A DNA stretch of 64,000 bases from assembly GCA_036253495.1 (NCBI GenBank), contig GCA_036253495.1_4125.1; one strand, given 5' to 3'. The stretch is from a phage. Below, piece after piece: positions 19,220 through 31,445 of the stretch. Both the position numbers and the translations under genes were made by a program. The notes below the pieces were generated by a model that had not been told where the DNA came from, searched no databases, and was given only the letters and a program-made list of their open reading frames with translations. Position 1 is the stretch's first letter; each line of letters begins with the position of its first letter.

Positions 19220-19372
19220 TAATATAATGTTACCATGCAATGTGGTGAATTTCCCTTAACAGTATTCAGTACTACATGATAGTCTTCATCCTCCTAGGGT
19301 AACATAGTGAGGGCTATGATGGCAGTACTGAATACTCCCTTCTTAAAGATAGATCTATGGTATAGTACTGAC

Positions 19373-19413
19373 GGATTTTGGGCGTAGTAACCCTGGGTGG
19401 ATTTTGGACGTAG
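19373..19413. repeat. direct repeat GGATTTTGG(G/A)CGTAG x2
   Basis: two copies 11 bp apart; related motif recurs at ~19745 and ~19950. Confidence 0.7.
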
Positions 19414-19444
19414 AGATGCCTAGCCCTCCAGAAGTCTGGAAGTA

Positions 19445-19592
19445 AAGATGGCTATCCCTCTAGACGGCTGGATGGCTGGATGGCTAGATTTCTAGATGGC
19501 TGTACTGCTAGACGTTTGGACGGCTAAACGGCTAGATGGTTAAACGTCTGGATGTATAGACGGTTAAATCAAAATTTTTATTTTGTTTTTTC
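19445..19592. repeat. iteron-like array plus AT-rich tract (candidate replication origin)
   Basis: about 10 degenerate copies of (T/G)(A/G)GA(T/C)GG(C/T)T in ~125 bp, followed by AAAATTTTTATTTTGTTTTTTCC. Confidence 0.4.
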
Positions 19593-19725
19593 CAATAGTT
19601 CCCCTACCGCGTGGGGATGGTTTCCCCGCAGTATCTGGAGTTAGATTTTTCTGAATCTGGAAACATTATCCCAGTTTTAGCGGGGTATGTCAACCGCCTG
19701 GATGAATATTTTTAAAAAATAATCT

Positions 19726-19808
19726 AGTACTGAATTTTGGGCGTAACTATGCACCCGGTGGGCTAGAGTCTTTCTCGACTTGATGAAATAATTATAGCAG
19801 TACTGAAT
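19726..19808. repeat. ~80-bp repeated intergenic element (copy 1)
   Basis: AGTACTGAATTTTGGGCGTA..GCACCCGGTGGGCTAGAG..TAATTATAGCAGTACTGAA; copies at 19944-20030 and 24041-24127. Confidence 0.6.
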
Positions 19809-19943
19809 TATAAAAGCAATAGCCTAAGTGTAAAAAGTTTTAATTAATTTGCTTGCCATCCTGGGGCGTACTATGGTACTATGATTCAGTACTGAGAAAG
19901 TACTTTGACCCGCTAGGGTGCGGGAGTGTATCCTTTTTAAATT

Positions 19944-20030
19944 TACTGAATTTTGGGCGTAGTTCCGCACCCCCTGGGGTATCCGCTTTCTCGCGTCTAT
20001 GTAGTAATTATACGCTTTTTTAGTACTGAG
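19944..20030. repeat. ~80-bp repeated intergenic element (copy 2)
   Basis: ACTGAATTTTGGGCGTAG..CACCCCCTGGGG..TAATTATACG..AGTACTGA. Confidence 0.55.
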
Positions 20031-20269
20031 TCAATAGCTAAAAACAAAATAATTGAAAATAATTTAACGCGTTTAAACGGCCCGTAAAGCCCTGGATTGT
20101 TGGGAGTGGTGCAAATGTATAGCTTAGGTGTATTAATGCGTTAGAATGCGTCTGAGGCCGTTTTAAGGGTATAGTACTGAATAATTGTACTCACTGGATT
20201 GATTCAGTACTGAATGATAGTACTCCTATATAGAAAGAAAACTATTTTAAAAGTATTTGCAGAAAGTAC

Positions 20270-20297
20270 TTGCATACTATGTTTAAGGGCGTATAAT
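20270..20297 (+). promoter_or_regulatory. early promoter
   Basis: AAAGTACTTGCAT ... TATAAT GTTTTACATC. Confidence 0.6.
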
Positions 20298-20353
20298 GTT
20301 TTACATCGAGACGGGGGAAACGCTCCTAACTCACTTTAATAGGAATTAAAACG

Positions 20354-20716
20354 ATGGCGACTCAAATCACTAAAATCATTGCTAACCTGGTTAACTTTCG
20401 CGAAGAGATGAAAGATCTTCCGGCTGAGACTGTAAAGATTCATATTTCAGCTTATCGGGAATTGATTGCAATGTTGCCGCTTAAGCGTGAACAATACGCC
20501 GCTACTGTGATGCTTGATGCGATGATCCACAAGATGATTGCCAGTGATTTAACGATGGCTTATCAGTACATGGGCGAACTATTTGCGGTGTATAGTAAAC
20601 CAGTGCCTGGGATGGAAAGTACAGAAGTATTGCACGGCTTAAACTTAAAACAAGATGCATGGGATAATATGCCTCGTTTCCTGGTATGGGCTGACAGTGG
20701 CAAGATTTACGAATAA
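20354..20716 (+). CDS. hypothetical early protein
   Basis: 120 aa; promoter TTGCAT/TATAAT upstream; SD AGGA. Confidence 0.65.
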   Translation: MATQITKIIANLVNFREEMKDLPAETVKIHISAYRELIAMLPLKREQYAATVMLDAMIHKMIASDLTMAYQYMGELFAVYSKPVPGMESTEVLHGLNLKQDAWDNMPRFLVWADSGKIYE

Positions 20717-20730
20717 GTTTTAAAAAGTAC

Positions 20731-20758
20731 TTGCAAAGTAAGTTTAAAAGCGTATAAT
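20731..20758 (+). promoter_or_regulatory. early promoter + 5' stem-loop
   Basis: TTGCAA-16-TATAAT; hairpin GTGGGGAA-tag-TTCCCCAC at ~20770-20789. Confidence 0.65.
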
Positions 20759-20810
20759 GTTTTACATCAGGTGGGGAATAGTTCCCCACTATATAAGAGG
20801 ATTTTTAATT

Positions 20811-21050
20811 ATGGCTACTACTAAAACTTTCAACGGTCACAAAAACAAAACTCATTGGAATGTAAGCCTTTGGATTAATAACGATGAGTCATTGTATCGT
20901 CTGGCGAAAGAATTTATCGACGCTAATACTAATCGTAATGATGCGGCCCGTCATATGATGCTATTTTTAGAACAAATTGGACAAGATAAAACTCCAGACG
21001 GTTTCAAGTATAGCACTACGGCGATCCGTGCTGCAATGGTTGGAATGTAA
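20811..21050 (+). CDS. hypothetical early protein
   Basis: 79 aa from MATTKTF; promoter + 5' hairpin + SD AGAGGA; track extension rejected. Confidence 0.65.
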   Translation: MATTKTFNGHKNKTHWNVSLWINNDESLYRLAKEFIDANTNRNDAARHMMLFLEQIGQDKTPDGFKYSTTAIRAAMVGM

Positions 21051-21071
21051 GAGAATAGATTTAAAGTACTA

Positions 21072-21096
21072 TTGCACGGTGATAGTACTTTATAAT
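21072..21096 (+). promoter_or_regulatory. possible promoter (weak spacing)
   Basis: TTGCAC ... TATAAT with short spacer. Confidence 0.3.
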
Positions 21097-21132
21097 AGAT
21101 TTCTTTTATACAACAACGATAGGGGTAACAGC

Positions 21133-21399
21133 ATGAATATTATATACTTTGCAACGCGTGAACAAGCTCGGCAAGCGGCAAAGGTTGACGGTGCAACGTT
21201 TAAAGATATGGGCGTACAATCTGAACGTGGTAAACGTTGGGCCGTAGTAAAGCAAAGTACAGCCCGATCAATTCAGTACTGGCTATCGGCTTTAAAGAGT
21301 CCTGATAGTGTATCGCGTCGAGTGGTAGAAATAAAGCACGACCGCAAGGGCAACCGTGTTACTGTGTACAGTACTAAAAAGATTGCAGTACTTGAATAA
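21133..21399 (+). CDS. hypothetical early protein (paralog of 33805-34200)
   Basis: 88 aa; shares FYATREQAR..GA.FKDMG..RWAV and HDRKGNRVTVYS with 33805-34200. Confidence 0.65.
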   Translation: MNIIYFATREQARQAAKVDGATFKDMGVQSERGKRWAVVKQSTARSIQYWLSALKSPDSVSRRVVEIKHDRKGNRVTVYSTKKIAVLE

Positions 21400-21405
21400 A
21401 AGTAC

Positions 21406-21433
21406 TTGCAAAGTAATTAGATTAACGTATAAT
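21406..21433 (+). promoter_or_regulatory. early promoter + 5' stem-loop
   Basis: TTGCAA-16-TATAAT; hairpin GTGGGGAA/TTCCCCAC. Confidence 0.65.
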
Positions 21434-21486
21434 ACTTTCTATCAGGTGGGGAATAGTTCCCCACTACAAATAAGAGGATTTTTAAA

Positions 21487-21717
21487 ATGGCTATTATGTA
21501 TATGACCGAAGTTAAAACCGTAAAAGATACTACCACTAATAAAACTACTTACTTACAGCGGGTATGCGGTGTATGGCAACGTATTAGTAAAGCAAAGTAC
21601 TTTAAATTAACATCATATGCTAATCGTTCGGATTCATTCAGTACTGAAATAAAAGGTAATAAATTACACCAATACGGCACTTATTATTATTATAGCCTGG
21701 ACGCGATTGCAGTCTAA
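21487..21717 (+). CDS. hypothetical early protein
   Basis: 76 aa; 5' region nearly identical to that of 20811-21050. Confidence 0.65.
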   Translation: MAIMYMTEVKTVKDTTTNKTTYLQRVCGVWQRISKAKYFKLTSYANRSDSFSTEIKGNKLHQYGTYYYYSLDAIAV

Positions 21718-21747
21718 GCAGTTTACAAATCTTTACAATTGCCGGTA

Positions 21748-21776
21748 TTGACTTATTTTGTCAGTACTGGCATAAT
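21748..21776 (+). promoter_or_regulatory. sigma70-like promoter in non-coding region
   Basis: TTGACT-17-CATAAT. Confidence 0.5.
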
Positions 21777-21968
21777 GTATCTATTGAAACGAACAATTTG
21801 GCCCACGGGGTGCGGGAGTGTATCTATAGAAAAAGTAGTTTAGTACAGTTACAATTGTGCACCCTATGGGTTAGCTGTTGTCATGGGGTATATTATACCA
21901 GTACTTGATAATGCTGTCAATACTTTTTTTTTACTATTCAGTACTGAAAACTATTTTTTAAAAAGTAC

Positions 21969-21996
21969 TTGCATACTATGTTTAAAGGCGTATAAT
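21969..21996 (+). promoter_or_regulatory. early promoter (upstream of structured leader)
   Basis: AAAAAGTACTTGCAT ... TATAAT GTTTTACATCAG. Confidence 0.6.
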
Positions 21997-22002
21997 GTTT
22001 TA

Positions 22003-22085
22003 CATCAGGACGGGGAACGAAATAAGTAACTCCCCGTTAAGTAGCCCAGGAGTAAGGCACACGAAAAACTCCCCTGATAAAATAG
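22003..22085 (+). other. conserved structured 5' leader RNA between tandem promoters (copy 1)
   Basis: ACGGGGAAcgaaataagtaaCTCCCCGT hairpin then CCAGGAG...CTCCCCTG; copy at 32613-32694 shows covariation. Confidence 0.5.
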
Positions 22086-22114
22086 TTTGACAAATGTTTT
22101 TAAAAGCGTATAAT
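22086..22114 (+). promoter_or_regulatory. second (proximal) promoter
   Basis: TTGACA-17-TATAAT, 30 nt before ATG 22147. Confidence 0.55.
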
Positions 22115-22146
22115 ACTTACATCAACTACTGAATGAGAGTTACAAA

Positions 22147-22821
22147 ATGAAAACTATCACTACTACTACTTTCGTTATGGATTTTTCTGAATTGAATGAG
22201 GGTGGCAAAGCGAAAACTATCACTACTACTACTTATGTTATGGCTTTTTCTGAATTGACCGCAGAACAACAAACGTCAGCTATCGAACTGGTTCGGGATC
22301 GTGAGCGTTCATGCGGGGATGATTTCTTTTCTGAGTCAGTGATCGAATACTATAAAGAAACATTATTGCCGGAATATGGCATTAATGACGCAGATTTACG
22401 ATTCAGTGGTTTTTGGTCGCAGGGTGACGGTGCATCAATCAGTACTGATCACGTTGACGGTGTGAAGTTTTTACGCAAGATTAAAGCATTAACTAAGTAT
22501 CGTTCTATCCGTCACCTGCTGAATGAAGATGATTTGGCAATGAGTGTAAAGCGTTCTCACTCCCACTACTCGCATGAAAACACTGTAAGCGGGTACATTG
22601 AATCGGCTTACACTGATTTAACCGCAAAACAAGAAACGTTAGTTAATGAGCTTGAGGAACTACTCACTGAAACTATTCGTGAATTATCTCGCAAGTTGTA
22701 CCGTGATTTAGAGAATGCATATGAGGATCAATTCACTACTGAGAACATTGTAGCACTGATTGAGGGTAACGAATATCAATTCAATGTTATTGATGGCGTA
22801 GTAGAATCAATCGAATATTAA
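22147..22821 (+). CDS. hypothetical protein with N-terminal in-frame tandem duplication
   Basis: 224 aa; KTITTTT(F/Y)VM(D/A)FSEL repeated twice; tandem promoters and structured leader upstream. Confidence 0.65.
   Translation: MKTITTTTFVMDFSELNEGGKAKTITTTTYVMAFSELTAEQQTSAIELVRDRERSCGDDFFSESVIEYYKETLLPEYGINDADLRFSGFWSQGDGASISTDHVDGVKFLRKIKALTKYRSIRHLLNEDDLAMSVKRSHSHYSHENTVSGYIESAYTDLTAKQETLVNELEELLTETIRELSRKLYRDLENAYEDQFTTENIVALIEGNEYQFNVIDGVVESIEY
22150..22262 (+). repeat. in-frame tandem duplication (~66-bp period) at 5' end of CDS 22147-22821
   Basis: AAAACTATCACTACTACTACTT..GTTATGG.TTTTTCTGAATTGA present twice. Confidence 0.8.
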
Positions 22822-22877
22822 TTCAGTACTGAATCAATGGCGGGAGTGGTTCCCGCCTATAACCAGGAGTAAGCATC

Positions 22878-23111
22878 ATGATCGAACAAATTCAAACGAC
22901 TACTAGCCGGAGCGGAACGAAAGTACATTCCATCGCTGATACTGATAAAGGTGTACCCTATTGTGCTGTACACGTAAACACTGACGGTGACTATTGGTTA
23001 ACTGTATACGGGCGTTACTCGTTTGCTTTTAGTGCACATAGTAAGATCCTGGAAGTAGTGAAGCCAACGGGTAAAAATATTACCGCTGAAATGTTTTATA
23101 AAAAGCACTAA
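22878..23111 (+). CDS. hypothetical early protein (paralog of 24247-24483)
   Basis: 77 aa; GVPYCAVHVNTDG.YW.TVYG..SF and PTGKNITAEMFYKK shared with 24247-24483. Confidence 0.65.
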   Translation: MIEQIQTTTSRSGTKVHSIADTDKGVPYCAVHVNTDGDYWLTVYGRYSFAFSAHSKILEVVKPTGKNITAEMFYKKH

Positions 23112-23118
23112 AAAGTAC

Positions 23119-23146
23119 TTGCAAAGTAATTAGATTAACGTATAAT
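23119..23146 (+). promoter_or_regulatory. early promoter + 5' stem-loop
   Basis: TTGCAA-16-TATAAT; hairpin GCGGGAA/TTCCCGC. Confidence 0.65.
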
Positions 23147-23196
23147 ACTTTATATCGAGAGCGGGAATAGTTCCCGCCTATACTGAGGATTATCTA

Positions 23197-23478
23197 ATGA
23201 GCAAAGTAATTAACTATACAGTACTAAGCAAGTCATTGTCTATCAGTGAGTGCACCGATGGTTATTGGCTTTATGATGAAACGCGTGGCATGAATTTAGC
23301 TATGCAGGAGAAAACTACTGATGCGGCATATCTTAAAGCACTGGAATACTACCAGAAGCGTTTAAAGGAAGTAGAAAACGATTATAATAACCTGAAAGCG
23401 AAAGTAGATAATTTCGTTGGTCAATTCGTTGACGATGACGAGGGGCACTACTGCGACCGTTGCGGATCTTACAGTTAA
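23197..23478 (+). CDS. hypothetical early protein
   Basis: 93 aa; promoter + hairpin GCGGGAA/TTCCCGC upstream. Confidence 0.6.
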   Translation: MSKVINYTVLSKSLSISECTDGYWLYDETRGMNLAMQEKTTDAAYLKALEYYQKRLKEVENDYNNLKAKVDNFVGQFVDDDEGHYCDRCGSYS

Positions 23479-23495
23479 GTACTAAGGATTATATA

Positions 23496-23699
23496 ATGAG
23501 TGATTTAATTGAACGTATCAAAGAGCTTGAAGAAAAAGAATTGCAGCTAATCGGCTTACAGAATAAAATCTATCATGATTTGGGGAGTTTTATCAATGCC
23601 TGGGATAGTGGCGATCCTGATGCGTTACCTGCTAACCGCCAGGCGATGATCAATGATGTGCGTCGTGTCTTTGAGTATGTTTTTAAGCAATTAAATTAA
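23496..23699 (+). CDS. hypothetical early protein
   Basis: 67 aa from MSDLIERIKELEE; SD AAGGA; track start 23460 rejected. Confidence 0.55.
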   Translation: MSDLIERIKELEEKELQLIGLQNKIYHDLGSFINAWDSGDPDALPANRQAMINDVRRVFEYVFKQLN

Positions 23700-23706
23700 A
23701 AAGTAC

Positions 23707-23734
23707 TTGCAATTAGTTTTCAGTACTGTATAAT
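23707..23734 (+). promoter_or_regulatory. early promoter + 5' stem-loop
   Basis: TTGCAA ... cAGTACTG TATAAT; hairpin GGGGAGAA/TTCTCCC. Confidence 0.65.
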
Positions 23735-23784
23735 AGTTTACATCAAGGGGAGAAATGGTTCTCCCTGGTAATGAGGAAAATACA

Positions 23785-24006
23785 ATGGCTAACATTACTA
23801 CCCTTTCCCAACTTGAAGCACTGGTTAAATCTATGCGGGAACATGCCGACAATATCGGCGTAAAAGATCCAGCCGTTTGCTTCTGCGACGATGTAAATGA
23901 TGATACACTGGTAATAGCAGAAGTCCAGGACGTTTCTAACTATTCATCGCGTTACACTGGCGGTGTAGCAAATAAAGGTGACTTCTGTTTATACCTTACT
24001 AAGTAA
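23785..24006 (+). CDS. hypothetical early protein
   Basis: 73 aa from MANITTLSQ; promoter + hairpin upstream; terminator downstream. Confidence 0.65.
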   Translation: MANITTLSQLEALVKSMREHADNIGVKDPAVCFCDDVNDDTLVIAEVQDVSNYSSRYTGGVANKGDFCLYLTK

Positions 24007-24010
24007 TACA

Positions 24011-24040
24011 GAGGGGATCGATTGATCCCCTTTATTTTGC
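24011..24040 (+). terminator. rho-independent terminator
   Basis: GGGGATC-gatt-GATCCCC + TTTATTTT. Confidence 0.7.
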
Positions 24041-24127
24041 AGTACTGAATCATTTAATAGACGGATCTATGCACCCGGTGGGTTAGAGACTGTATCGTCT
24101 TGATGTAGTAATTATGCCAGTACTGGA
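24041..24127. repeat. ~80-bp repeated intergenic element (copy 3)
   Basis: AGTACTGAA..CTATGCACCCGGTGGGTTAGAG..GTAATTATGCCAGTACTGG. Confidence 0.6.
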
Positions 24128-24172
24128 TGCAGTTGTCAAGAACTATTTTTCAAATACTTTTTATTAAAATAC

Positions 24173-24200
24173 TTGCTAATAGTTTTTAAACGCGTATAAT
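24173..24200 (+). promoter_or_regulatory. early promoter + 5' stem-loop
   Basis: TTGCTA-16-TATAAT; hairpin GGGGAgcgGTTCCCC. Confidence 0.6.
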
Positions 24201-24246
24201 GTTTTGCATAGGGGAGCGGTTCCCCTGGTAACTAAGGAATAAGAAA

Positions 24247-24483
24247 ATGCTTGAACAAATCAAAACAACGTCTGCGAATGTAACGGGAACGGTATCACAC
24301 TTTATTGGTGATGAATCGCGGGGCGTACCCTATTGTGCTGTACATGTAAACACTGATGGCAACTACTGGTTTACGGTTTACGGATCTTATTCATTTGGTC
24401 GACCTGGACATCAAAAAATCCTGGATAAAGTACAGCCAACGGGTAAAAATATCACTGCTGAAATGTTTTATAAAAAATCATAA
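24247..24483 (+). CDS. hypothetical early protein (paralog of 22878-23111)
   Basis: 78 aa; promoter + hairpin upstream. Confidence 0.65.
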   Translation: MLEQIKTTSANVTGTVSHFIGDESRGVPYCAVHVNTDGNYWFTVYGSYSFGRPGHQKILDKVQPTGKNITAEMFYKKS

Positions 24484-24488
24484 AGTAC

Positions 24489-24516
24489 TTGCAATTAGTT
24501 TTTAGTACTGTATAAT
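24489..24516 (+). promoter_or_regulatory. early promoter + 5' stem-loop
   Basis: TTGCAA-16-TATAAT; hairpin GGGGGAAC/GTTCCCC. Confidence 0.65.
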
Positions 24517-24566
24517 ATTTTACATAGCAAGGGGGAACGGTTCCCCTGGTAACTAAGGATAATCAA

Positions 24567-24866
24567 ATGAAAATTGCAATCATCGCCCTGGCTTTATCTG
24601 TTTCCTCTTTCGCTGTTAATGCGTCATTAGATGTACCTGGTGATAAATTCATTCAGTGCACAGTAGCAATGACAGATGAAAGTACTGGCGAGATTGTTTT
24701 AAAGGATCTGGAATTACAGCCAGAAGCATTTAAAAACGGGCCGTTCCATGAAGAAGACGAAAAAGGTAGCACAACAATTTATTATGATGCAATGAAAAAA
24801 CGTGGTTCTGTCACTGTTATGGATACTGAGAAAGTAACGCATACAGGCGTTATTAACTGCCTATAA
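24567..24866 (+). CDS. small secreted protein (signal peptide)
   Basis: MKIAIIALALSVSSFAVNA then mature part; terminator downstream. Confidence 0.65.
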   Translation: MKIAIIALALSVSSFAVNASLDVPGDKFIQCTVAMTDESTGEIVLKDLELQPEAFKNGPFHEEDEKGSTTIYYDAMKKRGSVTVMDTEKVTHTGVINCL

Positions 24867-24885
24867 TACATCAGTACTGAATCAC

Positions 24886-24915
24886 TAGCCCACTATAAGC
24901 AGTGGGCTTTTTTGT
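24886..24915 (+). terminator. rho-independent terminator
   Basis: AGCCCACT-ataagc-AGTGGGCT + TTTTTG. Confidence 0.75.
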
Positions 24916-24961
24916 AGTATCGTAGTACTGGAATACTTTGAAAATAGTTTTAAAAAAGTAG

Positions 24962-24990
24962 TTGACATTACCGCAAAAAGGCGTAGAATG
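24962..24990 (+). promoter_or_regulatory. promoter with long leader (H-NS-like gene)
   Basis: TTGACA-17-TAGAAT; ~120-nt leader before ATG 25113. Confidence 0.55.
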
Positions 24991-25112
24991 TATTACATCA
25001 AGACGGGGAACACTAAGTAGACCGCCAGTAAGTCGAACGAAAAACTGGACACGTCGAGAAAACTTTGATACACTAACTAACGTAAACTAAACTTTAATTG
25101 AGGAATTACATA

Positions 25113-25595
25113 ATGGCTAACGTAAAATCATTCATCAAAGCACTGGTAGCAAATGAAACTAACGTAGCGGCAGAAATCCTGGCCGAACTGGATAGCGATA
25201 CCATGAAAGCAGTACGCAACAATTTTAACATTGCGTACAGCGAAGCGAAAGAACTGCAAGCTAATAAAGCGGCAGCACTTGAAGCTGAGAAGGCAGCACG
25301 CGAAGCTGAATTGCAGAAAACGATTGAAGATATTAACGCCGCCGTCGCTGGGCTTGATCTGGAAGTAGTTACCGAAATGGCACGTAAAGCCCTGGCAGCG
25401 AAATACGGGGAAGACAAGCCAGAAGTAAAAGCTAAAAAATGGATTCAAGAACGTGTGACGGTTGTACTGGATAATGGCGAGGAATACACTGTACCAGTAC
25501 GCGGTAACTGCATTGCGGTAGTACTGGATGCTATCAAAGAAAGCGGATTGACTCGCGAGGAATGGATCGAATCTCATCGCAAAGTTGAAGCATAA
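25113..25595 (+). CDS. H-NS-like protein candidate (coiled-coil N-terminus, H-NS-like C-terminal domain)
   Basis: Ala/Glu/Lys-rich N-terminal half; C-terminus LDNGEEYTVPVRGNCIAVVLDAIKESGLTREEWI resembles H-NS [33 protein letters not shown]; long 5' leader; terminator. Confidence 0.45.
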   Translation: MANVKSFIKALVANETNVAAEILAELDSDTMKAVRNNFNIAYSEAKELQANKAAALEAEKAAREAELQKTIEDINAAVAGLDLEVVTEMARKALAAKYGEDKPEVKAKKWIQERVTVVLDNGEEYTVPVRGNCIAVVLDAIKESGLTREEWIESHRKVEA

Positions 25596-25615
25596 CAATT
25601 AAAGTACTGAATCAC

Positions 25616-25646
25616 TAGCCCACCTTAAACAGTGGGCTTTTTTTGT
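25616..25646 (+). terminator. rho-independent terminator
   Basis: AGCCCAC-cttaaac-AGTGGGCT + TTTTTTT. Confidence 0.75.
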
Positions 25647-25663
25647 GTCTATAGTATCCCAGT

Positions 25664-25733
25664 CCACCAGCACCGCCTAGAATCGATTCTAACGCATTAA
25701 ACTGATTATCTGATGCATCGCCCTAGCTGGTGG
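25664..25733. repeat. inverted repeat bounded by Chi octamers
   Basis: CCACCAGC (25664-25671) and GCTGGTGG (25726-25733); inner inverted CGATTCTAACGCATT / CGTTAGAATGCGATT. Confidence 0.6.
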
Positions 25734-25798
25734 CGTTAAGGTCGTTAGAATGCGATTGAGAGCGTTTAAAGTATTTTGCAAAAAGTAATAAAAAGTAC

Positions 25799-25826
25799 TT
25801 GCACGATAAAGAGATTAGCGTATAAT
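25799..25826 (+). promoter_or_regulatory. early promoter
   Basis: AAAAAGTACTTGCAC-16-TATAAT. Confidence 0.6.
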
Positions 25827-25871
25827 TAATTACATCAAGGCGAGACACCTTAACTAACTGAGGATATAAAG

Positions 25872-26024
25872 ATGAATACTTATGAACTGGATTGTTTCAC
25901 TTTACAAGTAATGTCAGTATGCAGTAAAAAAGATTGGTCATCAAAGGAATTTAAAGCAGTTATCGCGTGTGCAAAACACGGCAAGACTATCAATGAAACG
26001 GCATCAATCATTGATAAACTTTAA
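25872..26024 (+). CDS. small hypothetical protein (50 aa, not in ORF track)
   Basis: promoter TTGCAC/TATAAT upstream, SD GAGGA; MNTYELDCFTLQVMSVCSKK... Confidence 0.5.
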   Translation: MNTYELDCFTLQVMSVCSKKDWSSKEFKAVIACAKHGKTINETASIIDKL

Positions 26025-26032
26025 AAAATAGT

Positions 26033-26061
26033 TTGACAATAGTTTTAAGTACTGCGATAAT
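26033..26061 (+). promoter_or_regulatory. early promoter
   Basis: TTGACA-17-GATAAT. Confidence 0.55.
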
Positions 26062-26094
26062 ACATACATCAACTACTGAATAGGAATCAAAACA

Positions 26095-26322
26095 ATGGCT
26101 ATCGTAATCACTCGCGTAACTGGTACTACTGGCAATTCTTCTACTGTTGCTGTAATTACTAATAAGAAAGGTGCGGAATTGCATTTTGCAATGGATACCT
26201 GGGCAGTGAATGAGTTCGGTCAGTGGGCTAGTGTAGAATACATTGAATCCTATCAAGTGCCATCGATTAGCTTAACTGATTTAGGTGTAGAACGTATCCT
26301 TTGCCTGGATGAATTAAATTAA
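26095..26322 (+). CDS. hypothetical early protein
   Basis: 75 aa; promoter TTGACA/GATAAT upstream. Confidence 0.6.
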   Translation: MAIVITRVTGTTGNSSTVAVITNKKGAELHFAMDTWAVNEFGQWASVEYIESYQVPSISLTDLGVERILCLDELN

Positions 26323-26330
26323 AAAAGTAC

Positions 26331-26358
26331 TTGCAAAGTAAATCAAATAAAGTATAAT
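26331..26358 (+). promoter_or_regulatory. early promoter + 5' stem-loop
   Basis: TTGCAA-16-TATAAT; hairpin GGGGAGAA/TTCTCCCC. Confidence 0.65.
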
Positions 26359-26408
26359 ACATTACATCAAGGGGAGAAATGGTTCTCCCCACTAAGAGGA
26401 AACGAAAA

Positions 26409-26552
26409 ATGAAAACTTGTCAATGTGGTAAAAAATCTATTACTGGTTTAAAGCGGGGCGTTGCTCTTTGTCAGTATCACTATAATGCTCAAGTATGGGG
26501 TAAAGAGTGGGCCGACCGGGTTGAAGCATCAAAGAAAGCAAAAAGTAAGTAA
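26409..26552 (+). CDS. small Cys-rich protein (47 aa, not in ORF track)
   Basis: MKTCQCGKK...CQYHY; promoter + hairpin + SD AGAGGA upstream. Confidence 0.5.
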   Translation: MKTCQCGKKSITGLKRGVALCQYHYNAQVWGKEWADRVEASKKAKSK

Positions 26553-26571
26553 AAATATTATCACAGTACTA

Positions 26572-26600
26572 TTGACATAGATTGATAGTACTGGCATAAT
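26572..26600 (+). promoter_or_regulatory. early promoter (duplicated cassette, copy 1)
   Basis: TTGACA-17-CATAAT; same 90-bp cassette at 26857-26947 and 30738-30827. Confidence 0.6.
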
Positions 26601-26643
26601 AGATTTTATCAAGACAACACATATTAATTTAAGGAATACTAAA

Positions 26644-26856
26644 ATGGCTATCATTATTAAAAACAAAGTTAACAAGACTATCGTTAAACTGGCAGAAGTG
26701 AAAGAAGGTTATAAAGTATCTTGGGAGGGTTTTTATAGGATGTTCACAGATATAGACGATGCAATCAAGTACTACACTGATACGGTTGCTGACTTTGTTC
26801 GTTCTGATGTAGTAATGGCAGTTGCACAACATAAAGCATCGAAAGAAAGTAAGTAA
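26644..26856 (+). CDS. hypothetical early protein (cassette paralog, cf. 30828-31007)
   Basis: 70 aa; near-identical promoter/leader to 26857-26947 and 30738-30827. Confidence 0.65.
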   Translation: MAIIIKNKVNKTIVKLAEVKEGYKVSWEGFYRMFTDIDDAIKYYTDTVADFVRSDVVMAVAQHKASKESK

Positions 26857-26875
26857 AATTATTATCACAGTACTA

Positions 26876-26904
26876 TTGACATAGTTTGATAGTACTGGCA
26901 TAAT
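26876..26904 (+). promoter_or_regulatory. early promoter (duplicated cassette, copy 2)
   Basis: TTGACA-17-CATAAT. Confidence 0.6.
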
Positions 26905-26947
26905 AGATTTTATCAAGACAACACATATTAATTTAAGGAATACTAAA

Positions 26948-27271
26948 ATGGCTAAAACTATCATTAACACCGTATCCCTGGCTGCAATCCGTGCAATCAA
27001 TGTTGACGGTAAACGTTGGACTGATTCATATGGCAATACTTATCATTCTTGTCATGTAAGCGTTGAACTGGATAACGGTGTGAATGATCTGGCGGTTGAA
27101 TCATTTACTTATGGCTATGAAGATGCATATCAACAAACGGCGTTATCTCTCTTAAAGGAATCAGTAGATGGGCTTGATACTGTTGAAACCTCCCTTAATC
27201 GTTTGTGCAATGATTTGTCTATCCCGTTGCATTGTACTGTACAGAATGTTAAACGCAAAAAAGATCTTTAA
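26948..27271 (+). CDS. hypothetical early protein (paralog of 33386-33709)
   Basis: 107 aa; RWTDS.GNTYHSC, FTYGY, VKRKKD shared with 33386-33709. Confidence 0.7.
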   Translation: MAKTIINTVSLAAIRAINVDGKRWTDSYGNTYHSCHVSVELDNGVNDLAVESFTYGYEDAYQQTALSLLKESVDGLDTVETSLNRLCNDLSIPLHCTVQNVKRKKDL

Positions 27272-27351
27272 TTAGCTTTACTTTATGCAGATACTTTGAT
27301 ATAGTGTCTGCATAGGGGAAAGAAATTAAATTAACTTAAGAGGATAGTATA

Positions 27352-27621
27352 ATGAAAAATATCAGTACTTTAATCGATGCAGGTACGCATGTTCGTCGGT
27401 CTATGGTTGCAACCAGTACTACAAAACAAGTAGCGAGCGGTTATCTTGTATTTGTGCACGATGGTAAACTCCTGGAACGTTCAATCAATTTTGATGTTAA
27501 AAACAATTGCCGTTTTATTATCTTTAAGCGTGAACAATATAAAATTGATTTACCAGCGAAGCCCATAAGCGGGGCGTACAACGTGCAATCATTGTTTGAG
27601 CGTCAACCATACACCTATTAA
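27352..27621 (+). CDS. hypothetical early protein
   Basis: 89 aa; SD AAGAGGA. Confidence 0.6.
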   Translation: MKNISTLIDAGTHVRRSMVATSTTKQVASGYLVFVHDGKLLERSINFDVKNNCRFIIFKREQYKIDLPAKPISGAYNVQSLFERQPYTY

Positions 27622-27672
27622 TCAAAACATCGTTAGCGGTTGATTTAGGCCGCTTATATTGAGGATTATACC

Positions 27673-27942
27673 ATGAACGTTAATCAAGTACTGAATGAAG
27701 TTGAAAGCATCATTAAACCAATGAAACGAATTGATGCAATTCCTACACCGGAAGAATGCCGCCTTTATGAGCGTTACAGTGTAGAACAAGCCCAGGCGAT
27801 GGCCCGTATCCGTCCGGTTGCTAGTACTGAGAACGCGGATCAGGACGTTACAGGGGATTATATCATTAATCCAGTACTAGGGAAGATGCCGCCAATCACC
27901 GAAGAACAAAAAGACTATTTGAGCCAGTACTTAAAAGGTTAA
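27673..27942 (+). CDS. hypothetical early protein
   Basis: 89 aa; SD GAGGA. Confidence 0.6.
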   Translation: MNVNQVLNEVESIIKPMKRIDAIPTPEECRLYERYSVEQAQAMARIRPVASTENADQDVTGDYIINPVLGKMPPITEEQKDYLSQYLKG

Positions 27943-27947
27943 TTAAT

Positions 27948-28157
27948 ATGCTTACTGTACAGGATAAGATCGACATCTTAAAGGTTAATATGTATGTGAT
28001 TGATGCAGATCCTGAAAAAGTATTTGCATACGATGATTCTAATCGTAGTCCTTTCTATTGTAGTCATGTAGTTGGATACGTGCCGTTGGCGTATGTTATC
28101 GAAAGAGTGGTTGATGCAGCATACAATCATTTTTTAGAAAATAATACTTGCAATTAG
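27948..28157 (+). CDS. hypothetical early protein
   Basis: 69 aa; closely follows upstream ORF. Confidence 0.55.
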   Translation: MLTVQDKIDILKVNMYVIDADPEKVFAYDDSNRSPFYCSHVVGYVPLAYVIERVVDAAYNHFLENNTCN

Positions 28158-28175
28158 TTTTCAGTACTGTATAAT
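28148..28175 (+). promoter_or_regulatory. early promoter + 5' stem-loop
   Basis: TTGCAA-16-TATAAT; hairpin GCGGGAA/TTCCCGC. Confidence 0.65.
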
Positions 28176-28229
28176 GATTTGCATCGAGAGCGGGAATGGT
28201 TCCCGCCTAACTCAAAGAGAGAAAATATA

Positions 28230-28472
28230 ATGGAAACTATTTTAATCAAAGACACTGCAACTACTGTTACTTATGATAATGATTGTATTATCCCTGGCAC
28301 TGATTACGGTGAACGTGTACCCGTTCAAGTCGAGATTGATACTACATACATTGACCAGGCTGAAAAGTGTATCACTATTGTTATTGGTGAATATCGTTTT
28401 CTACCAGAAGAGATCCAAAAATGGCAGTATATGATTGACCGTGCGAAATTAGTCGCACAAAGTTTAAAATAA
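28230..28472 (+). CDS. hypothetical early protein
   Basis: 80 aa from METILIKD; promoter + hairpin upstream; track extension rejected. Confidence 0.6.
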   Translation: METILIKDTATTVTYDNDCIIPGTDYGERVPVQVEIDTTYIDQAEKCITIVIGEYRFLPEEIQKWQYMIDRAKLVAQSLK

Positions 28473-28475
28473 TAC

Positions 28476-28503
28476 TTGCAATTAGTTTTCAGTACTGTAT
28501 AAT
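28476..28503 (+). promoter_or_regulatory. early promoter + 5' stem-loop
   Basis: TTGCAA-16-TATAAT; hairpin GGGGAG/CTCCCC. Confidence 0.65.
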
Positions 28504-28554
28504 GTTTTACATGAAGGGGAGAAATAGTACTCCCCACTAATTAAGGAATATGAA

Positions 28555-28701
28555 ATGAAAGCATCAAAAAAGAGTAATACTAAGAAAGCATGTTCACCTT
28601 TCGCTGGGGTATTCCCTTTACGTTTCGTTGATGAAGTGGTTTCCTACCCGCCGGGCCTTACTCCTGAGATGGTAGAAAGTTTGCGTAAATCTAAAAAATA
28701 G
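28555..28701 (+). CDS. small basic protein (48 aa, not in ORF track)
   Basis: MKASKKSNTKKACSPF...; promoter + hairpin + SD AAGGA upstream. Confidence 0.5.
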   Translation: MKASKKSNTKKACSPFAGVFPLRFVDEVVSYPPGLTPEMVESLRKSKK

Positions 28702-28704
28702 TAC

Positions 28705-28732
28705 TTGCAATTAGTTTTCAGTACTGTATAAT
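28705..28732 (+). promoter_or_regulatory. early promoter + 5' stem-loop
   Basis: TTGCAA-16-TATAAT; hairpin GGGGAAA/GGTTCTCCCC. Confidence 0.65.
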
Positions 28733-28782
28733 GTTTTACATAGAGGGGGGAAATGGTTCTCCCCGATACTAGGAGAATCAAA

Positions 28783-28935
28783 ATGAAACAATATAATGCT
28801 CGGTTTGATGTTACTATCGGCAACGGCAAAGGTCAATTTTCTTTCAGTACTCGTCGCAGTTATACAGAAAACTTCCTGCGTAATTGTGCATTGACCGCCG
28901 CACAAATTAAACATTACTTCCAGGCTAAAAAATGA
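28783..28935 (+). CDS. small hypothetical protein (50 aa)
   Basis: MKQYNARFDV...; promoter + hairpin + SD AGGAGA; track extension rejected. Confidence 0.55.
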   Translation: MKQYNARFDVTIGNGKGQFSFSTRRSYTENFLRNCALTAAQIKHYFQAKK

Positions 28936-29021
28936 AATCATTGGCTTATTACAGTTCGGCGGTGATCGGTGCATTGATCGCGGCATTGTTAGTAACCTAT
29001 CTATTCTTTGTGGTGATTTAA
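28932..29021 (+). CDS. small hydrophobic membrane peptide (29 aa)
   Basis: MKSLAYYSSAVIGALIAALLVTYLFFVVI; ATGA overlap with upstream stop. Confidence 0.4.
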   Translation: MKSLAYYSSAVIGALIAALLVTYLFFVVI

Positions 29022-29159
29022 ATGAATCCTAACGGTTTAATTTATAGTACTCCTAAAACGAAAGCAGATAAAGCGAAAGCACGTAAAGCGAAAGTAAAGG
29101 AGTACATCAAGCAAGGCATGACGCGAAAAGCAGCAGTACTAAAAGCTAAAAATAAATGA
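29022..29159 (+). CDS. small Lys-rich protein (45 aa)
   Basis: MNPNGLIYSTPKTKADKAKARKAKVKEY...; directly follows membrane peptide. Confidence 0.4.
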   Translation: MNPNGLIYSTPKTKADKAKARKAKVKEYIKQGMTRKAAVLKAKNK

Positions 29160-29164
29160 AAAAA

Positions 29165-29197
29165 GTGGTTGACTTCGGTCAGCCATTTTGCTATTAT
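29165..29197 (+). promoter_or_regulatory. composite terminator-hairpin/promoter element (copy 1, divergent)
   Basis: AAAAAGTGGTTGACTTCGGTCAGCCATTTTGCTATTAT: hairpin spans -35 TTGACT and spacer; -10 TATTAT. Confidence 0.5.
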
Positions 29198-29278
29198 ATA
29201 TTCATTGAGAGATAGCTCACTAGCCCACCGGGTGCGGAAGTGTAAATAAAATATATCAATCTAATAAGGAGTACTACA

Positions 29279-29461
29279 ATGTTTAAACCAATCGAACTAG
29301 CGGCATCACATATCATCGGTAAACCTGCCGTTATCATACGCCAGGAAGACGTAAACCTATGGATCATCTATGTAGACATGAAAGAGATTGAGCGTCACGA
29401 TGATTTCAAATCAGCGTCAATTGCGTATGATATGGCGTTATGTGAGTATCAAAGAGATTAA
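29279..29461 (+). CDS. hypothetical early protein
   Basis: 60 aa; SD AAGGAG; composite terminator/promoter element upstream. Confidence 0.6.
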   Translation: MFKPIELAASHIIGKPAVIIRQEDVNLWIIYVDMKEIERHDDFKSASIAYDMALCEYQRD

Positions 29462-29481
29462 AAGTATTTTGCAAAAAGTAC

Positions 29482-29509
29482 TTGCATTGTACTTAGAATC
29501 AAGTATAAT
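29482..29509 (+). promoter_or_regulatory. early promoter + 5' stem-loop
   Basis: TTGCAT-16-TATAAT; hairpin GGGGAAAC/GTTTCCCC. Confidence 0.65.
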
Positions 29510-29561
29510 GTTTTACATAGCAAGGGGAAACGGTTTCCCCTGGTAACTAAGGAAATGAATT

Positions 29562-30029
29562 ATGAATAGCATCGAATTCGTCGCAGCAGTACAAGAAAAC
29601 TTCCTGAAAGTATTCCCTAACGGTTTCTTTATCGCCCGACCTTTACCGCTGGGTGGCGACGTGGGGATCACTATGTCACTGACTCGCGAGCTTGCCGACT
29701 GCCCCCACAATATCCGCGATAACGACCGCATGATGATGACCTTTGCGATCCACGGTATGAAGTTCGGGGATAGCGACGAATACACAGACAAGCTGATCAT
29801 GGAACCGTACCGCAGCGTTATCAGTACTATTCCACGTAAACAGTACTACGCGATGGGACATGACAAAATCCCTACCCGTAAGACTACAAACACGCCTGAG
29901 AAGCTGTTAGCGACTCTTAACAAGTATATTCGGGCCGCAGGTAAACAGGTGTTAGATCTTAAAGCATTAAACGAGATTTACCAACAGGAAAACATCAAAG
30001 AGCAGTACTTAGAAATTAACGTAAAATAG
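29562..30029 (+). CDS. hypothetical early protein
   Basis: 155 aa; promoter TTGCAT/TATAAT + hairpin GGGGAAAC/GTTTCCCC upstream. Confidence 0.7.
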   Translation: MNSIEFVAAVQENFLKVFPNGFFIARPLPLGGDVGITMSLTRELADCPHNIRDNDRMMMTFAIHGMKFGDSDEYTDKLIMEPYRSVISTIPRKQYYAMGHDKIPTRKTTNTPEKLLATLNKYIRAAGKQVLDLKALNEIYQQENIKEQYLEINVK

Positions 30030-30032
30030 TAC

Positions 30033-30061
30033 TAGACAACACAACGGGGCTATTATATAAT
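30033..30061 (+). promoter_or_regulatory. promoter
   Basis: TAGACA-17-TATAAT within imperfect palindrome. Confidence 0.45.
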
Positions 30062-30093
30062 AGTCCCATCTTAAGCAAACAAGGAACTACAAA

Positions 30094-30432
30094 ATGATCT
30101 CAATCGCTCAATCTAACTTTGAAAACGAAATCATCGCCCAGGCACTGCGTTTAAATGATGGTCGGGCCGAAATTAATTACGGTTTCAATTCAGGCGGTTG
30201 TGAAAACTATCAGTACTTTGTAACGGCTGATGGCGGTGTCCTGGGAATCAATACAGTTATTGTAAACATTCAGAAAATTAATTTCAATGATCCAGAAGAT
30301 AGCCAGTTTTACATCACGGGCGTAGACGTGAACTATGAGGATGACTCACTAACTGATGATTGCACTGGTGAGAAGTTAGAAAGTGCATACGGTGAAGATG
30401 ATTATCAGTCCGGTCCAGAAGATTTCGAATAA
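30094..30432 (+). CDS. acidic hypothetical protein (candidate DNA-mimic)
   Basis: 112 aa; highly acidic C-terminal half (NDPEDSQFY...YEDDSLTDD...YGEDDYQSGPEDFE). Confidence 0.6.
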   Translation: MISIAQSNFENEIIAQALRLNDGRAEINYGFNSGGCENYQYFVTADGGVLGINTVIVNIQKINFNDPEDSQFYITGVDVNYEDDSLTDDCTGEKLESAYGEDDYQSGPEDFE

Positions 30433-30445
30433 TATAAAAAATAGT

Positions 30446-30473
30446 TTGACAATAGATTATAGTACTGTATAAT
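30446..30473 (+). promoter_or_regulatory. early promoter + 5' stem-loop
   Basis: TTGACA-16-TATAAT; hairpin GGGGAGAA/TTCTCCCC. Confidence 0.65.
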
Positions 30474-30524
30474 AAGTTACATCAAGGGGAGAATAGTTCT
30501 CCCCACAAACAGAGAGAAAACAAA

Positions 30525-30737
30525 ATGGCTAATATCCGCACTGTACTGAAAAATGCAAAACAAGTTTTATTTTCTGATCATGAAAATTTCAACAAGGATA
30601 TCACAGGCGTTCGGAATATCAAAGATGTAAAAAATGTTATGGGTATCTATTGCAATATGAAACGTGTTGGCACGTTCGGCGATAAAGTACTATACCAGGC
30701 AGGGGATTACAATTTTACACTGACTATCATTAACTAA
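30525..30737 (+). CDS. hypothetical early protein
   Basis: 70 aa; promoter + hairpin upstream. Confidence 0.65.
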   Translation: MANIRTVLKNAKQVLFSDHENFNKDITGVRNIKDVKNVMGIYCNMKRVGTFGDKVLYQAGDYNFTLTIIN

Positions 30738-30756
30738 AAATATTATCACAGTACTA

Positions 30757-30785
30757 TTGACAACGTTTGATAGTACTGACATAAT
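30757..30785 (+). promoter_or_regulatory. early promoter (duplicated cassette, copy 3)
   Basis: TTGACA-17-CATAAT. Confidence 0.6.
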
Positions 30786-30827
30786 AACTTTTATCAAGAC
30801 AACGCATATTAACTTAAGGAATTAAAA

Positions 30828-31007
30828 ATGGCTATTATCGCAAAAACTGAAATCGTTGGTCTGGATTCTATCATCATGACGTTTGAAGATCAAAAAGGGA
30901 TGTATGTAGTTTCCTATGGTGATTATGTTCGGGAGTATGAAACGGTAGACGAAGCCTTTGAAAGTTACATTCGCCAGGTGAATAAAGCATACGACGACTA
31001 CCGCTAA
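30828..31007 (+). CDS. small hypothetical protein (59 aa, not in ORF track), cassette paralog of 26644-26856
   Basis: MAIIAKTEIVGLDS...; same promoter/leader cassette as 26553-26643. Confidence 0.55.
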   Translation: MAIIAKTEIVGLDSIIMTFEDQKGMYVVSYGDYVREYETVDEAFESYIRQVNKAYDDYR

Positions 31008-31034
31008 AATATATTACCAGTACTATTAAAGATA

Positions 31035-31062
31035 TTGACATAGTTTGATAGTACTGTATAAT
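31035..31062 (+). promoter_or_regulatory. early promoter
   Basis: TTGACA-16-TATAAT. Confidence 0.6.
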
Positions 31063-31106
31063 AAGTTTTATCAACAGTAGTTAACTTAACCTAAGAGAGA
31101 AAGAAA

Positions 31107-31250
31107 ATGATCGCACTGGATTCATTCATCGAAGCAGTACTGGCAAAAACTGGCGAAGATCTGACCGCAGAACAATACGCAATGATCGAACAATGCCAGC
31201 AAGACGGTAAATCGGTGAAAGATACTGTTAAGATTATCCGCAAGATGTAA
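31107..31250 (+). CDS. small hypothetical protein (47 aa, not in ORF track)
   Basis: MIALDSFIEAVLAKTGEDLTAEQYAMIEQCQQDGK...; promoter upstream, terminator downstream. Confidence 0.5.
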   Translation: MIALDSFIEAVLAKTGEDLTAEQYAMIEQCQQDGKSVKDTVKIIRKM

Positions 31251-31255
31251 GATTA

Positions 31256-31288
31256 TAGCCCACTGGTTAACGCTGGTGGGCTTTTTAG
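31256..31288 (+). terminator. rho-independent terminator (contains Chi octamer)
   Basis: AGCCCAC-tggttaacgctg-GTGGGCT + TTTT; includes GCTGGTGG. Confidence 0.65.
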
Positions 31289-31362
31289 TATATACCTATC
31301 CGATAGTACTACAAAATAGATTAGCTCGTTAGAATGCGTTTGAGAGCGTTTAAATAAGTACT

Positions 31363-31390
31363 AAAAAGTATTGACAGTACTGATAGATAG
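31363..31390 (+). promoter_or_regulatory. early promoter + 5' stem-loop
   Basis: TTGACA-16-TATAAT; hairpin GGGGAA-acatc-TTCCCC. Confidence 0.65.
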
Positions 31391-31445
31391 TGTATAATGT
31401 TTTACATGAAGGGGAAACATCTTCCCCTACTAAGAGGAAAACAAA

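Follow-up and report, generated by a model that had tools for sequence, protein, structure and literature searches.

Which kind of element is a short intergenic sequence that recurs three times in the early region of a jumbo coliphage, and what might it do there? The question is raised by a 64,000-nt stretch of phage DNA (GenBank assembly GCA_036253495.1, contig GCA_036253495.1_4125.1; hereafter the window), for which an earlier note, made from the sequence alone, had described a partially palindromic motif in three places, each upstream of an early promoter, and had proposed it as operator or enhancer for a shared regulator. Sequence comparisons argue for a different identity: the motif is very probably a phage-borne version of a conserved ~30-nt block that abuts the XerC arm in ArgR-type cer sites, the dimer-resolution sites of plasmids, and the same element as the inverted repeats B (IRB) and B' (IRB') of phage T5.

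Three copies of a conserved motif in the window

The window contains three copies of the ~28-nt motif, all on the plus strand (20138-20165, 25742-25769 and 31326-31353; sites 1, 2 and 3, respectively). A search with the consensus pattern resulted in exactly three matches, again all on the plus strand, at 20139-20165 (one mismatch, ...CCGTTTTA), 25743-25769 and 31327-31353, and none of 100 dinucleotide shuffles gave any match to the pattern. When we scanned the 64-kb window with a position weight matrix (PWM) derived from 14 diverse motif copies, the three sites scored 42-45 bits as compared to at most 12 bits in shuffled sequence, and weaker copies were not detected. Thus, the motif is indeed present in three places, where none would be expected by chance. 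The places had been given correctly, with the positions being 2-8 nt off.

The symmetry ascribed to the motif did not survive inspection. The palindrome argument had set CGTTAGAATGCG against CGCATTCTAACG and is invalid, because CGCATTCTAACG is what CGTTAGAATGCG reads on the opposite strand; when the 12-mer is aligned with its own reverse complement, just 4 of 12 positions agree. A better description of the motif is a series of three units, (G/T)CGTT-N5, in helical register (10-bp phasing) and with a T-run behind them.

Relation of the motif to plasmid cer and rcd

In the plasmids pZH49-6 and pMS196 a XerC/XerD core, GGTACGTACAA-N6-TTATGGTAAAT, comes right after the motif. At the junction of block and XerC arm the plasmid element reads GCGTCAGAAAGCGATTGAGAGCGTTTTAGAG and then GGTACGTACAA, and ColE1, whose cer core GGTGCGTACAATTAAGGGATTATGGTAAAT we located at 3909-3938, reads GCCGTGATCGCGCTGAACGCGTTTTAGC and then GGTGCGTACAA; the alignment between the plasmid element and ColE1 cer covers the whole stretch from ARG box to core. 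The XerC/XerD core is present in ColE1 and six plasmids, and six divergent cer-like sites have a common block, GCGTCAGAA-CGCG-T-AG-GCGTTTTAG, before the XerC arm. The block of ColE1 itself has diverged below the PWM threshold.

Local alignment of the phage sites with the plasmid multimer resolution site (mrs) and ColE1 cer revealed that only a block of 25-38 bp is held in common, and the XerC-proximal block of the phage sites aligned to pZH49-6 with z values of 5.6-16.5. In cer a distance of 98 bp separates the XerC site from the ARG box upstream of it, and for PepA there is no consensus that could be used (PMC2409434). No ARG box was found at the phage copies in the local alignments, and an ARG-box-like string noticed by eye at site 2 is a poor match. 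Likewise, the window copies have no XerC/XerD core: XerD-arm-like matches amount to 17 in the window versus 12.6 expected, none of them adjoining the motif, and of the XerC arm at most the outer GGTA is left, at site 1. As ARG box and XerC/XerD core are both missing, no phage copy is a recombination site.

We also checked pSC101 psi and the E. coli carAB operator, where the motif is absent (PWM score <4). As both DNAs depend on PepA, the block is specific for the cer/rcd family and not a generic PepA signature. A promoter described as embedded in cer, EcoRI PR, was discarded as a counterpart of the motif, its -35 element being located in the central region of the core.

Published geometry allows the block to be positioned relative to rcd, the gene for the cer-encoded RNA Rcd. 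The promoter Pcer has a 15-bp spacer and Rcd comprises ~70 nt (PMC5935869; PMC5357621), and transcription of rcd runs in the direction of RNAII, entering from the accessory side (PMC2831885). In ColE1 RNAI is on the minus strand and RNAII hence on the plus strand. We infer that Pcer corresponds to TTGCAT-15-TAAAAT at ColE1 3795-3821 and that Rcd extends rightward for 70-78 nt, so that the block homologous to the motif (3881-3908) would form the 3' arm and tail of Rcd; it is the orientation of RNAII, the 15-bp spacer and the length of Rcd, taken together, that would place it at the 3' end of rcd.

The motif in the terminal repeat of T5-like phages

A 41-nt query around site 2 matched all Asteriusviruses found and more than 100 T5-like phages, which contain the same 28-nt core. 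T5 has three copies per 10-kb terminal repeat, in the first-step-transfer DNA with its non-coding Repeat Regions 1-3 (RR1-RR3), namely IRB, IRB' and an unannotated third copy, the RR3 copy, which is located at the start of a DnaA-box element beside the injection-stop (iss) region; in both inverted units the T5 motif lies 35 bp from palD and the DnaA-box element. Davison, in a preprint, proposes the DnaA-box element as the T5 injection-stop signal and gives neither a function for IRB nor a link to Xer or PepA.

Judged by the alignments, the phage-to-phage homology is subtype-specific, site 1 being of the RR3 type and site 3 of the IRB' type. Local alignments of site 1 with RR3 copies of T5-like phages (T5, Spc35 and locus L013) extend over ~56 nt with z values of 10.8-14.1, and those of site 3 with the IRB' type include the TTAGCT flank (z 7.5-12). 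The DnaA-box consensus occurs 12 times in the window versus 12.45 expected, with none near the sites.

Two further features of the T5-like copies are recorded here. T5 palindrome D (TACTGTATAAATATACAGTA; L003 9330-9349 and 6130-6150), which sits between the motif and the DnaA boxes, resembles a LexA SOS box. T5-like phages with TTGAGA in the motif (e.g. L001 3013-3047) have a promoter-like TTGAGA-17-TAGAAT reading into it; as a candidate explanation, a promoter inside the motif (TTGAGA-17-TAGAAT/TACAAC) was rejected, being found in some T5-like phages and plasmids and not in the window copies.

An Rcd-like layout at sites 1 and 2

The inverted partial copy reported at ~25686 proved to be real and corresponds to the 5' arm of a perfect 9-bp stem at site 2: nucleotides 25686-25694 (ATTCTAACG) are perfectly complementary to 25743-25751 (CGTTAGAAT), separated by a 48-nt loop. 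A TAGAAT hexamer at 25678-25683 lies 64 nt before the motif, which is the offset of TAAAAA in pZH49-6. The Chi-bounded inverted repeat around this arm was confirmed as well, with CCACCAGC at 25664-25671 and GCTGGTGG at 25726-25733. At site 1 the arms comprise 11-14 nt, and the whole unit is conserved in 121Q and vB_Ec-M-J.

An alignment (A5) of plasmid rcd regions with site 2 of the window, four other Asteriusviruses, two copies from O157 prophages and two islands displays a common layout, in which a -10-like hexamer precedes the 5' arm and a variable loop of ~45 nt leads on to the motif as 3' arm plus tail. In the stem 74.8% of the cells are paired, as compared to 32-44% with the partner slid, and nine cells are changed on both sides, a number reached by only 3 of 500 shuffles. 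G.U cells (7) outnumber A.C cells (3). Arm pairs such as CTGACGC/GCGTCAG, CTGCCGC/GCGGCAG, CTAACG/CGTTAG and CTGACGAG/CTCGTCAG amount to roughly three independent compensatory events, and we regard the stem as moderately supported. Site 1 matched the A5 profile (nhmmer, hmm 9-102, E 3.6e-4) although it was outside the training set, and site 1 of 121Q and of vB_Ec-M-J, also outside the training set, gave near full-length matches. A separate analysis of covariation within the Asteriusviruses was abandoned, as their sequences differ too little and the observed changes lack compensation. Rfam gave no match in the window or in related loci; it has no model for Rcd, and ColE1 gives only RNAI.

Position relative to early promoters and the terminal repeat

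The window is ~90% identical to Asteriusvirus jumbo coliphages, e.g. 121Q, PBECO4 and G17. Between 18.98 and 39.45 kb (18,980-39,460) it carries at least 24 early promoters of the sigma70 type, near-identical and arranged as an array (AAAAGTACTTGCA ... TATAAT), each unit continuing with a GC hairpin (e.g. GGGGAGAAATGGTTCTCCCC) and a Shine-Dalgarno sequence. The three motif copies are located in non-coding DNA of this region (Table 1), site 1 within a non-coding leader of ~1.7 kb. In vB_Ec-M-J nucleotides 1-21525 are annotated as direct terminal repeat, with motif copies at 1488, 7481 and 11794, and the genome end maps to ~18,590 of the window. This annotation, combined with synteny, places the three window copies inside a predicted terminal repeat. 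121Q contains exactly three pattern matches in 348,532 bp.

In vB_Ec-M-J (L002, 11794-11825) and 121Q (L024, 3418) the third copy is found at another junction than site 3 of the window. There it overlaps a ribosome-binding site, its ACAGGACG segment being the Shine-Dalgarno region of the next gene (EcMJ_028), and for this reason it is certainly transcribed. Co-orientation with local transcription was observed for the three window copies, the T5 RR3 copy, L052/Caitlin and the islands L069 and L071.

These data bear directly on the idea of an operator or enhancer by which a phage-encoded regulator would control the three adjacent early promoters together. The motif is a genuine, non-random and conserved cis element situated between terminator and early promoter, and each copy is upstream of, and co-oriented with, a sigma70-type early promoter; this part of the proposal stands. 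The reasoning towards a shared regulator does not. Only three of the at least 24 sibling promoters have the motif upstream, the element has no dyad symmetry (the 4 of 12 positions given above), and the spacing varies. The distance of 40-70 bp to the promoter is roughly right, as the start of the motif precedes the start of the -35 element by ~132, 56 and 44 nt at sites 1, 2 and 3, corresponding to ~105, 29 and 17 nt from the end of the motif. In addition, the third copy lies elsewhere, over a ribosome-binding site, in vB_Ec-M-J and 121Q, and the element is also present in plasmids, islands and unrelated phage families (Demerecviridae, Machinavirus). A phage operator is thus very improbable.

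Table 1. Coordinates of the motif copies and associated features in the window and in T5
Feature	Sequence	Position	Strand	Remarks
Site 1, full rcd-like unit	Window	20056-20170	+	Upstream arms within 20065-20082 (TAACGCGTTTAAACGGCC) can pair with parts of the motif in two alternative ways
Site 1, motif GCGTTAGAATGCGTCTGAGGCCGTTTTAAGGGTA	Window	20138-20171	+	T5 RR3-type copy; ~56-nt homology to T5-like copies over 20131-20186
Early sigma70-type promoter downstream of site 1	Window	20271-20298	+	TTGCAT ... TATAAT
Intrinsic terminator-like hairpin and T-run, upstream of site 2	Window	25617-25645	+	
Chi-bounded inverted repeat	Window	25664-25733		CCACCAGC ... GCTGGTGG; its arms and those of the site 2 unit are interleaved
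Site 2, full rcd-like unit	Window	25673-25776	+	-10-like TAGAAT, 5' arm, loop with Chi, 3' arm, tail
Site 2, motif TCGTTAGAATGCGATTGAGAGCGTTTAA	Window	25742-25769	+	22-nt core identical to E. coli prophage copy
Early sigma70-type promoter downstream of site 2	Window	25799-25827	+	TTGCAC ... TATAAT
Intrinsic terminator-like hairpin and T-run, upstream of site 3	Window	31257-31288	+	Contains Chi
Site 3, solo motif TCGTTAGAATGCGTTTGAGAGCGTTTAA	Window	31326-31353	+	Without complementary arm; T5 IRB'-type copy, TTAGCT 5' flank in common
Early sigma70-type promoter downstream of site 3	Window	31371-31398	+	TTGACA-16-TATAAT
Inverted repeat B (IRB), annotated	T5	5282-5307		
Inverted repeat B' (IRB'), annotated	T5	6189-6214	-	
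Third copy (RR3), unannotated	T5	9270-9297		35 bp left of palD/IRD'

The surroundings of the sites are rich in other repeats. Chi (GCTGGTGG) occurs nine times on the plus strand (1215, 25726, 31272, 31539, 32532, 34893, 36816, 38718 and 38941) and at 25664 on the minus strand, versus an expectation of ~0.2 for each strand, and the early/terminal-repeat region contains nearly all of them; a terminator stem includes one Chi and the loop of the site 2 unit another, and in 121Q a Chi is found in the loop of the site 1 unit. AGTACT is found 271 times versus ~22 expected in the whole window, most densely at 12-40 kb, and is often embedded in CAGTACTG or AAAGTACTTGCA near promoters and within the non-coding leader. 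The leader (18,590-20,350) contains short repeats, of the GGCTGGATGG type at 19,460-19,570 and three times ATTTTGGGCGTAG near 19,380, 19,735 and 19,950. Outside the motif region we noted tandem units of ~1.25 kb on the minus strand (5,820-14,500; paralogous genes with conserved 5' regions), a tandem duplication of 197 bp (40,587-40,980) and coding repeats with a period of ~212 bp (42,208-44,889). ARAGORN detected no tRNA or tRNA fragment in the window.

Distribution of the motif on mobile DNA

A scan of IMG/VR resulted in 80 matches, including the reference loci, mostly on T5-like contigs and with three from 121Q. A group of prophage contigs from isolate genomes has a core identical to that of site 2, and a 221-kb viral contig is related to the Erwinia jumbo phage Caitlin in its motif region; the matches of groups E, F and H turned out to be due to chance, in coding regions. 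Of 5,426 complete E. coli genomes 521 contain the motif, always in accessory DNA, namely in prophages, 18 nt beyond a small HNH endonuclease gene, in islands integrated at eut/intZ and tRNA-Thr, on a 100-kb colicin plasmid and on 5-kb mobilizable plasmids. One of the islands (L071, ~5150-5200) has a promoter-plus-hairpin layout downstream of its motif copy, like the units of the window. In bacterial genomes a 14-16-base pattern was swamped by chance matches, and among the matches listed only an E. albertii prophage is genuine. The 171-bp plasmid element is present in 1,291 plasmids of PLSDB, and T5-like phages and plasmids of Salmonella retain the motif. Plasmids of 2-5 kb carry the motif but encode no candidate regulator, so that any binder must be a host protein and not a phage regulator.

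The HNH genes deserve separate mention. Two are located near motif copies, in an E. coli O157 prophage (L066, 6074-6361) at a distance of 18 nt and in T5 (L003, 5513-5853) at ~200 nt; both are free-standing and belong to two weakly related subfamilies (E 0.001). No HNH endonuclease was detected in the window by tblastn. One might read the motif as the target that a free-standing HNH homing endonuclease recognises or lands on, and the proximity of genes from two subfamilies to the prophage copy and to T5 IRB, together with an elevated variability of the motif that could reflect escape from cleavage, would fit. However, most copies, including all window copies, have no HNH gene nearby, the motif is intact beside those HNH genes that do exist, and the plasmid copies are explained by cer/rcd. 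We give this reading hardly any weight.

Alternatively, the copies could be non-functional relics, i.e. fragments of cer/rcd picked up from plasmids or islands by recombination into permissive non-coding DNA and spread between co-infecting phages, possibly via gene conversion around free-standing HNH genes. Cer-like sites are known hot spots of recombination and gene capture (PMC7315355), HNH genes abut the motif in prophages and T5, the copies are truncated to differing extents, the third copy is differently placed across the Asteriusviruses, and the motif of site 2 is more variable than its flanks among them. On the other hand, every T5-like and Asteriusvirus copy examined retains the same positions, two subtype-specific correspondences connect two phage families, the motif is confined to terminal repeats (three matches in 348 kb of 121Q), and the window has no HNH gene. 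Taken together, relics without function are unlikely.

A possible structured RNA or site for a host protein

Rcd binds tryptophanase and stalls division and growth of the host. By analogy, the single most likely mechanism for the phage element, although doubtful in its own right, is a structured RNA or hairpin of the Rcd type, with a docking site for a host protein and a relic without function following closely. Sites 1 and 2 have the Rcd-like layout, with a complementary 5' arm, a loop of ~50-70 nt and the motif as 3' arm plus tail, and site 3 represents a solo 3' segment. The element would be transcribed in sense direction together with the early region of the terminal repeat, DNA that probably enters the cell early, as in T5, and the RNA or hairpin would act on a host protein instead of serving as operator for the adjacent promoters. 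We favour this role because of the covariation of the arms, the layout of sites 1 and 2, the mostly sense orientation and the absence of the block from psi and carAB. The explanation as a whole, i.e. identity and mechanism combined, is a tentative one whose chances we put somewhat below even.

Several observations weigh against it. No 5' arm was found at site 3 or at the T5-like copies examined (T5, Spc35), and of the A5 profile nothing beyond the motif part is matched by site 3 (hmm 65-99) and by the T5-like copies, just as a profile built from plasmids only detects nothing but the motif part in phages. Predicted RNA folds of phage copies are no better than those of shuffles (z -1.1, 0.07, 0.27 and 0.46), and at the position equivalent to Pcer there is no sigma70-like promoter above random, the best -35/-10 pairs matching 5-9 of 12 positions, like random 80-mers. 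The changes in the 3' arm of EC.P1 and phAPEC6 are uncompensated, and the higher variability of the site 2 motif relative to its flanks counts here, too. The ColE1 coordinates of Pcer and Rcd derive from published geometry and not from primary mapping. Tryptophanase, moreover, cannot be the general target, as Salmonella lacks tnaA (PMC3405474), yet its phages and plasmids keep the motif. Finally, it is the unpaired tail that is conserved most strongly, as would be expected just as well of a DNA-binding site.

Such a site might dock or bend DNA, with the three 10-bp-phased GCGTT units being bound or wrapped by a host architectural protein, PepA/ArgR-type or other. It would organise the DNA of the terminal repeat or insulate or tune the downstream early promoter, and in T5 it would be one more host site in the iss cluster, beside the LexA-like box and the DnaA boxes. 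The primary sequence is kept even in solo copies and in the unpaired tail, the GCG repeats have a 10-bp periodicity, and in plasmids the motif abuts the XerC arm, in the region assigned to PepA and curvature. A host binder would also be in line with the small plasmids that encode none, with the motif in hosts without tnaA, and with the 35-bp distance between the T5 motif and the palD/DnaA-box element in both inverted units. Yet the motif is absent from psi and carAB, the other PepA-dependent DNAs tested, it is not accompanied by an ARG box, a FIS-type G-N13-C core is missing, and DnaA boxes are no more frequent than expected. According to the literature no motif can be recognised for PepA (PMC2409434), the promoter spacing is variable with one copy lying over a ribosome-binding site, and coordinated changes of the arms would not be expected. 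A host-protein site is rather unlikely. Comparison by eye with consensus sequences of FIS, IHF, boxA, marbox, RcsB and the ArgR half-site gave no convincing match, and a boxA-like CGCTCTCAA on the opposite strand was set aside as it covers nucleotides of the motif that differ between copies.

In its widest form the proposal of a functional element would be that virulent phages with long terminal repeats, T5-like phages and Asteriusvirus jumbo phages, carry there, in T5 on the DNA that is first to enter the cell, modules derived from cer/rcd to hijack a host factor, either by an Rcd-like RNA that arrests division and growth of the host through tryptophanase/indole or another target, or by recruiting the accessory machinery of cer to the end of the incoming DNA. 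We consider this generalisation distinctly improbable. If true, IRB/IRB' and the RR3 copy would be functional parts of the long-unexplained injection-stop/pre-early control region of T5.

Comparison with known systems

Both cer/rcd and T5 IRB have been described before. What is new is an orphan cer/rcd segment without recombination core that two unrelated families of virulent phages have kept, as two subtypes, in their terminal repeats, and our literature search found no paper linking cer/rcd to T5 IRB, or either of them to terminal repeats of jumbo phages. The motif thus connects T5 IRB, the terminal repeats of 350-kb jumbo coliphages and the XerC-proximal/rcd segment of plasmids, which are separate in the literature searched. 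If functional, it would offer a handle on a host factor acting on the first DNA injected, with a bearing on how T5 manages two-step injection and pre-early control, a question of 50 years' standing; it would then also represent the first homologue of the Rcd checkpoint RNA in a phage. Even as a relic without function, it documents the exchange of a non-coding module among plasmids, islands and unrelated virulent phages.

Among the systems with which the element can be compared, psi and carAB resemble cer in that accessory DNA is wrapped by PepA, but they lack the motif and also lack rcd. In T4, cassettes of the PeSL type, modules of early promoter plus stem-loop, are thought to mediate gene shuffling. 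The array surrounding the motif likewise consists of repeated modules of promoter and 5' stem-loop, and the motif behaves as a small portable intergenic module; in contrast to the T4 cassettes, however, it is located outside the promoter/stem-loop unit, at three junctions only, and its relatives are plasmid cer/rcd. With cer/rcd the phage element has in common that at sites 1 and 2 the 5' half of the motif pairs with an upstream arm, as in the stem of Rcd, and that the loops are of similar length, whereas the phage copies differ in having no ARG box, no XerC/XerD core and no convincing Pcer, and at site 3 and in the T5 copies the 3' segment stands alone. T5 differs from the window in that its copies flank DnaA-box elements (IRC-spacer-IRD) and a LexA-like palindrome, whereas the window has no DnaA-box cluster, and in that IRB and IRB' do not form a 50-nt hairpin but lie 0.2-0.9 kb from each other, as inverted copies of full length. 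At the same time T5 IRB is of the same sequence family, and there, too, the element is found in non-coding DNA of a long terminal repeat, with three copies per repeat.

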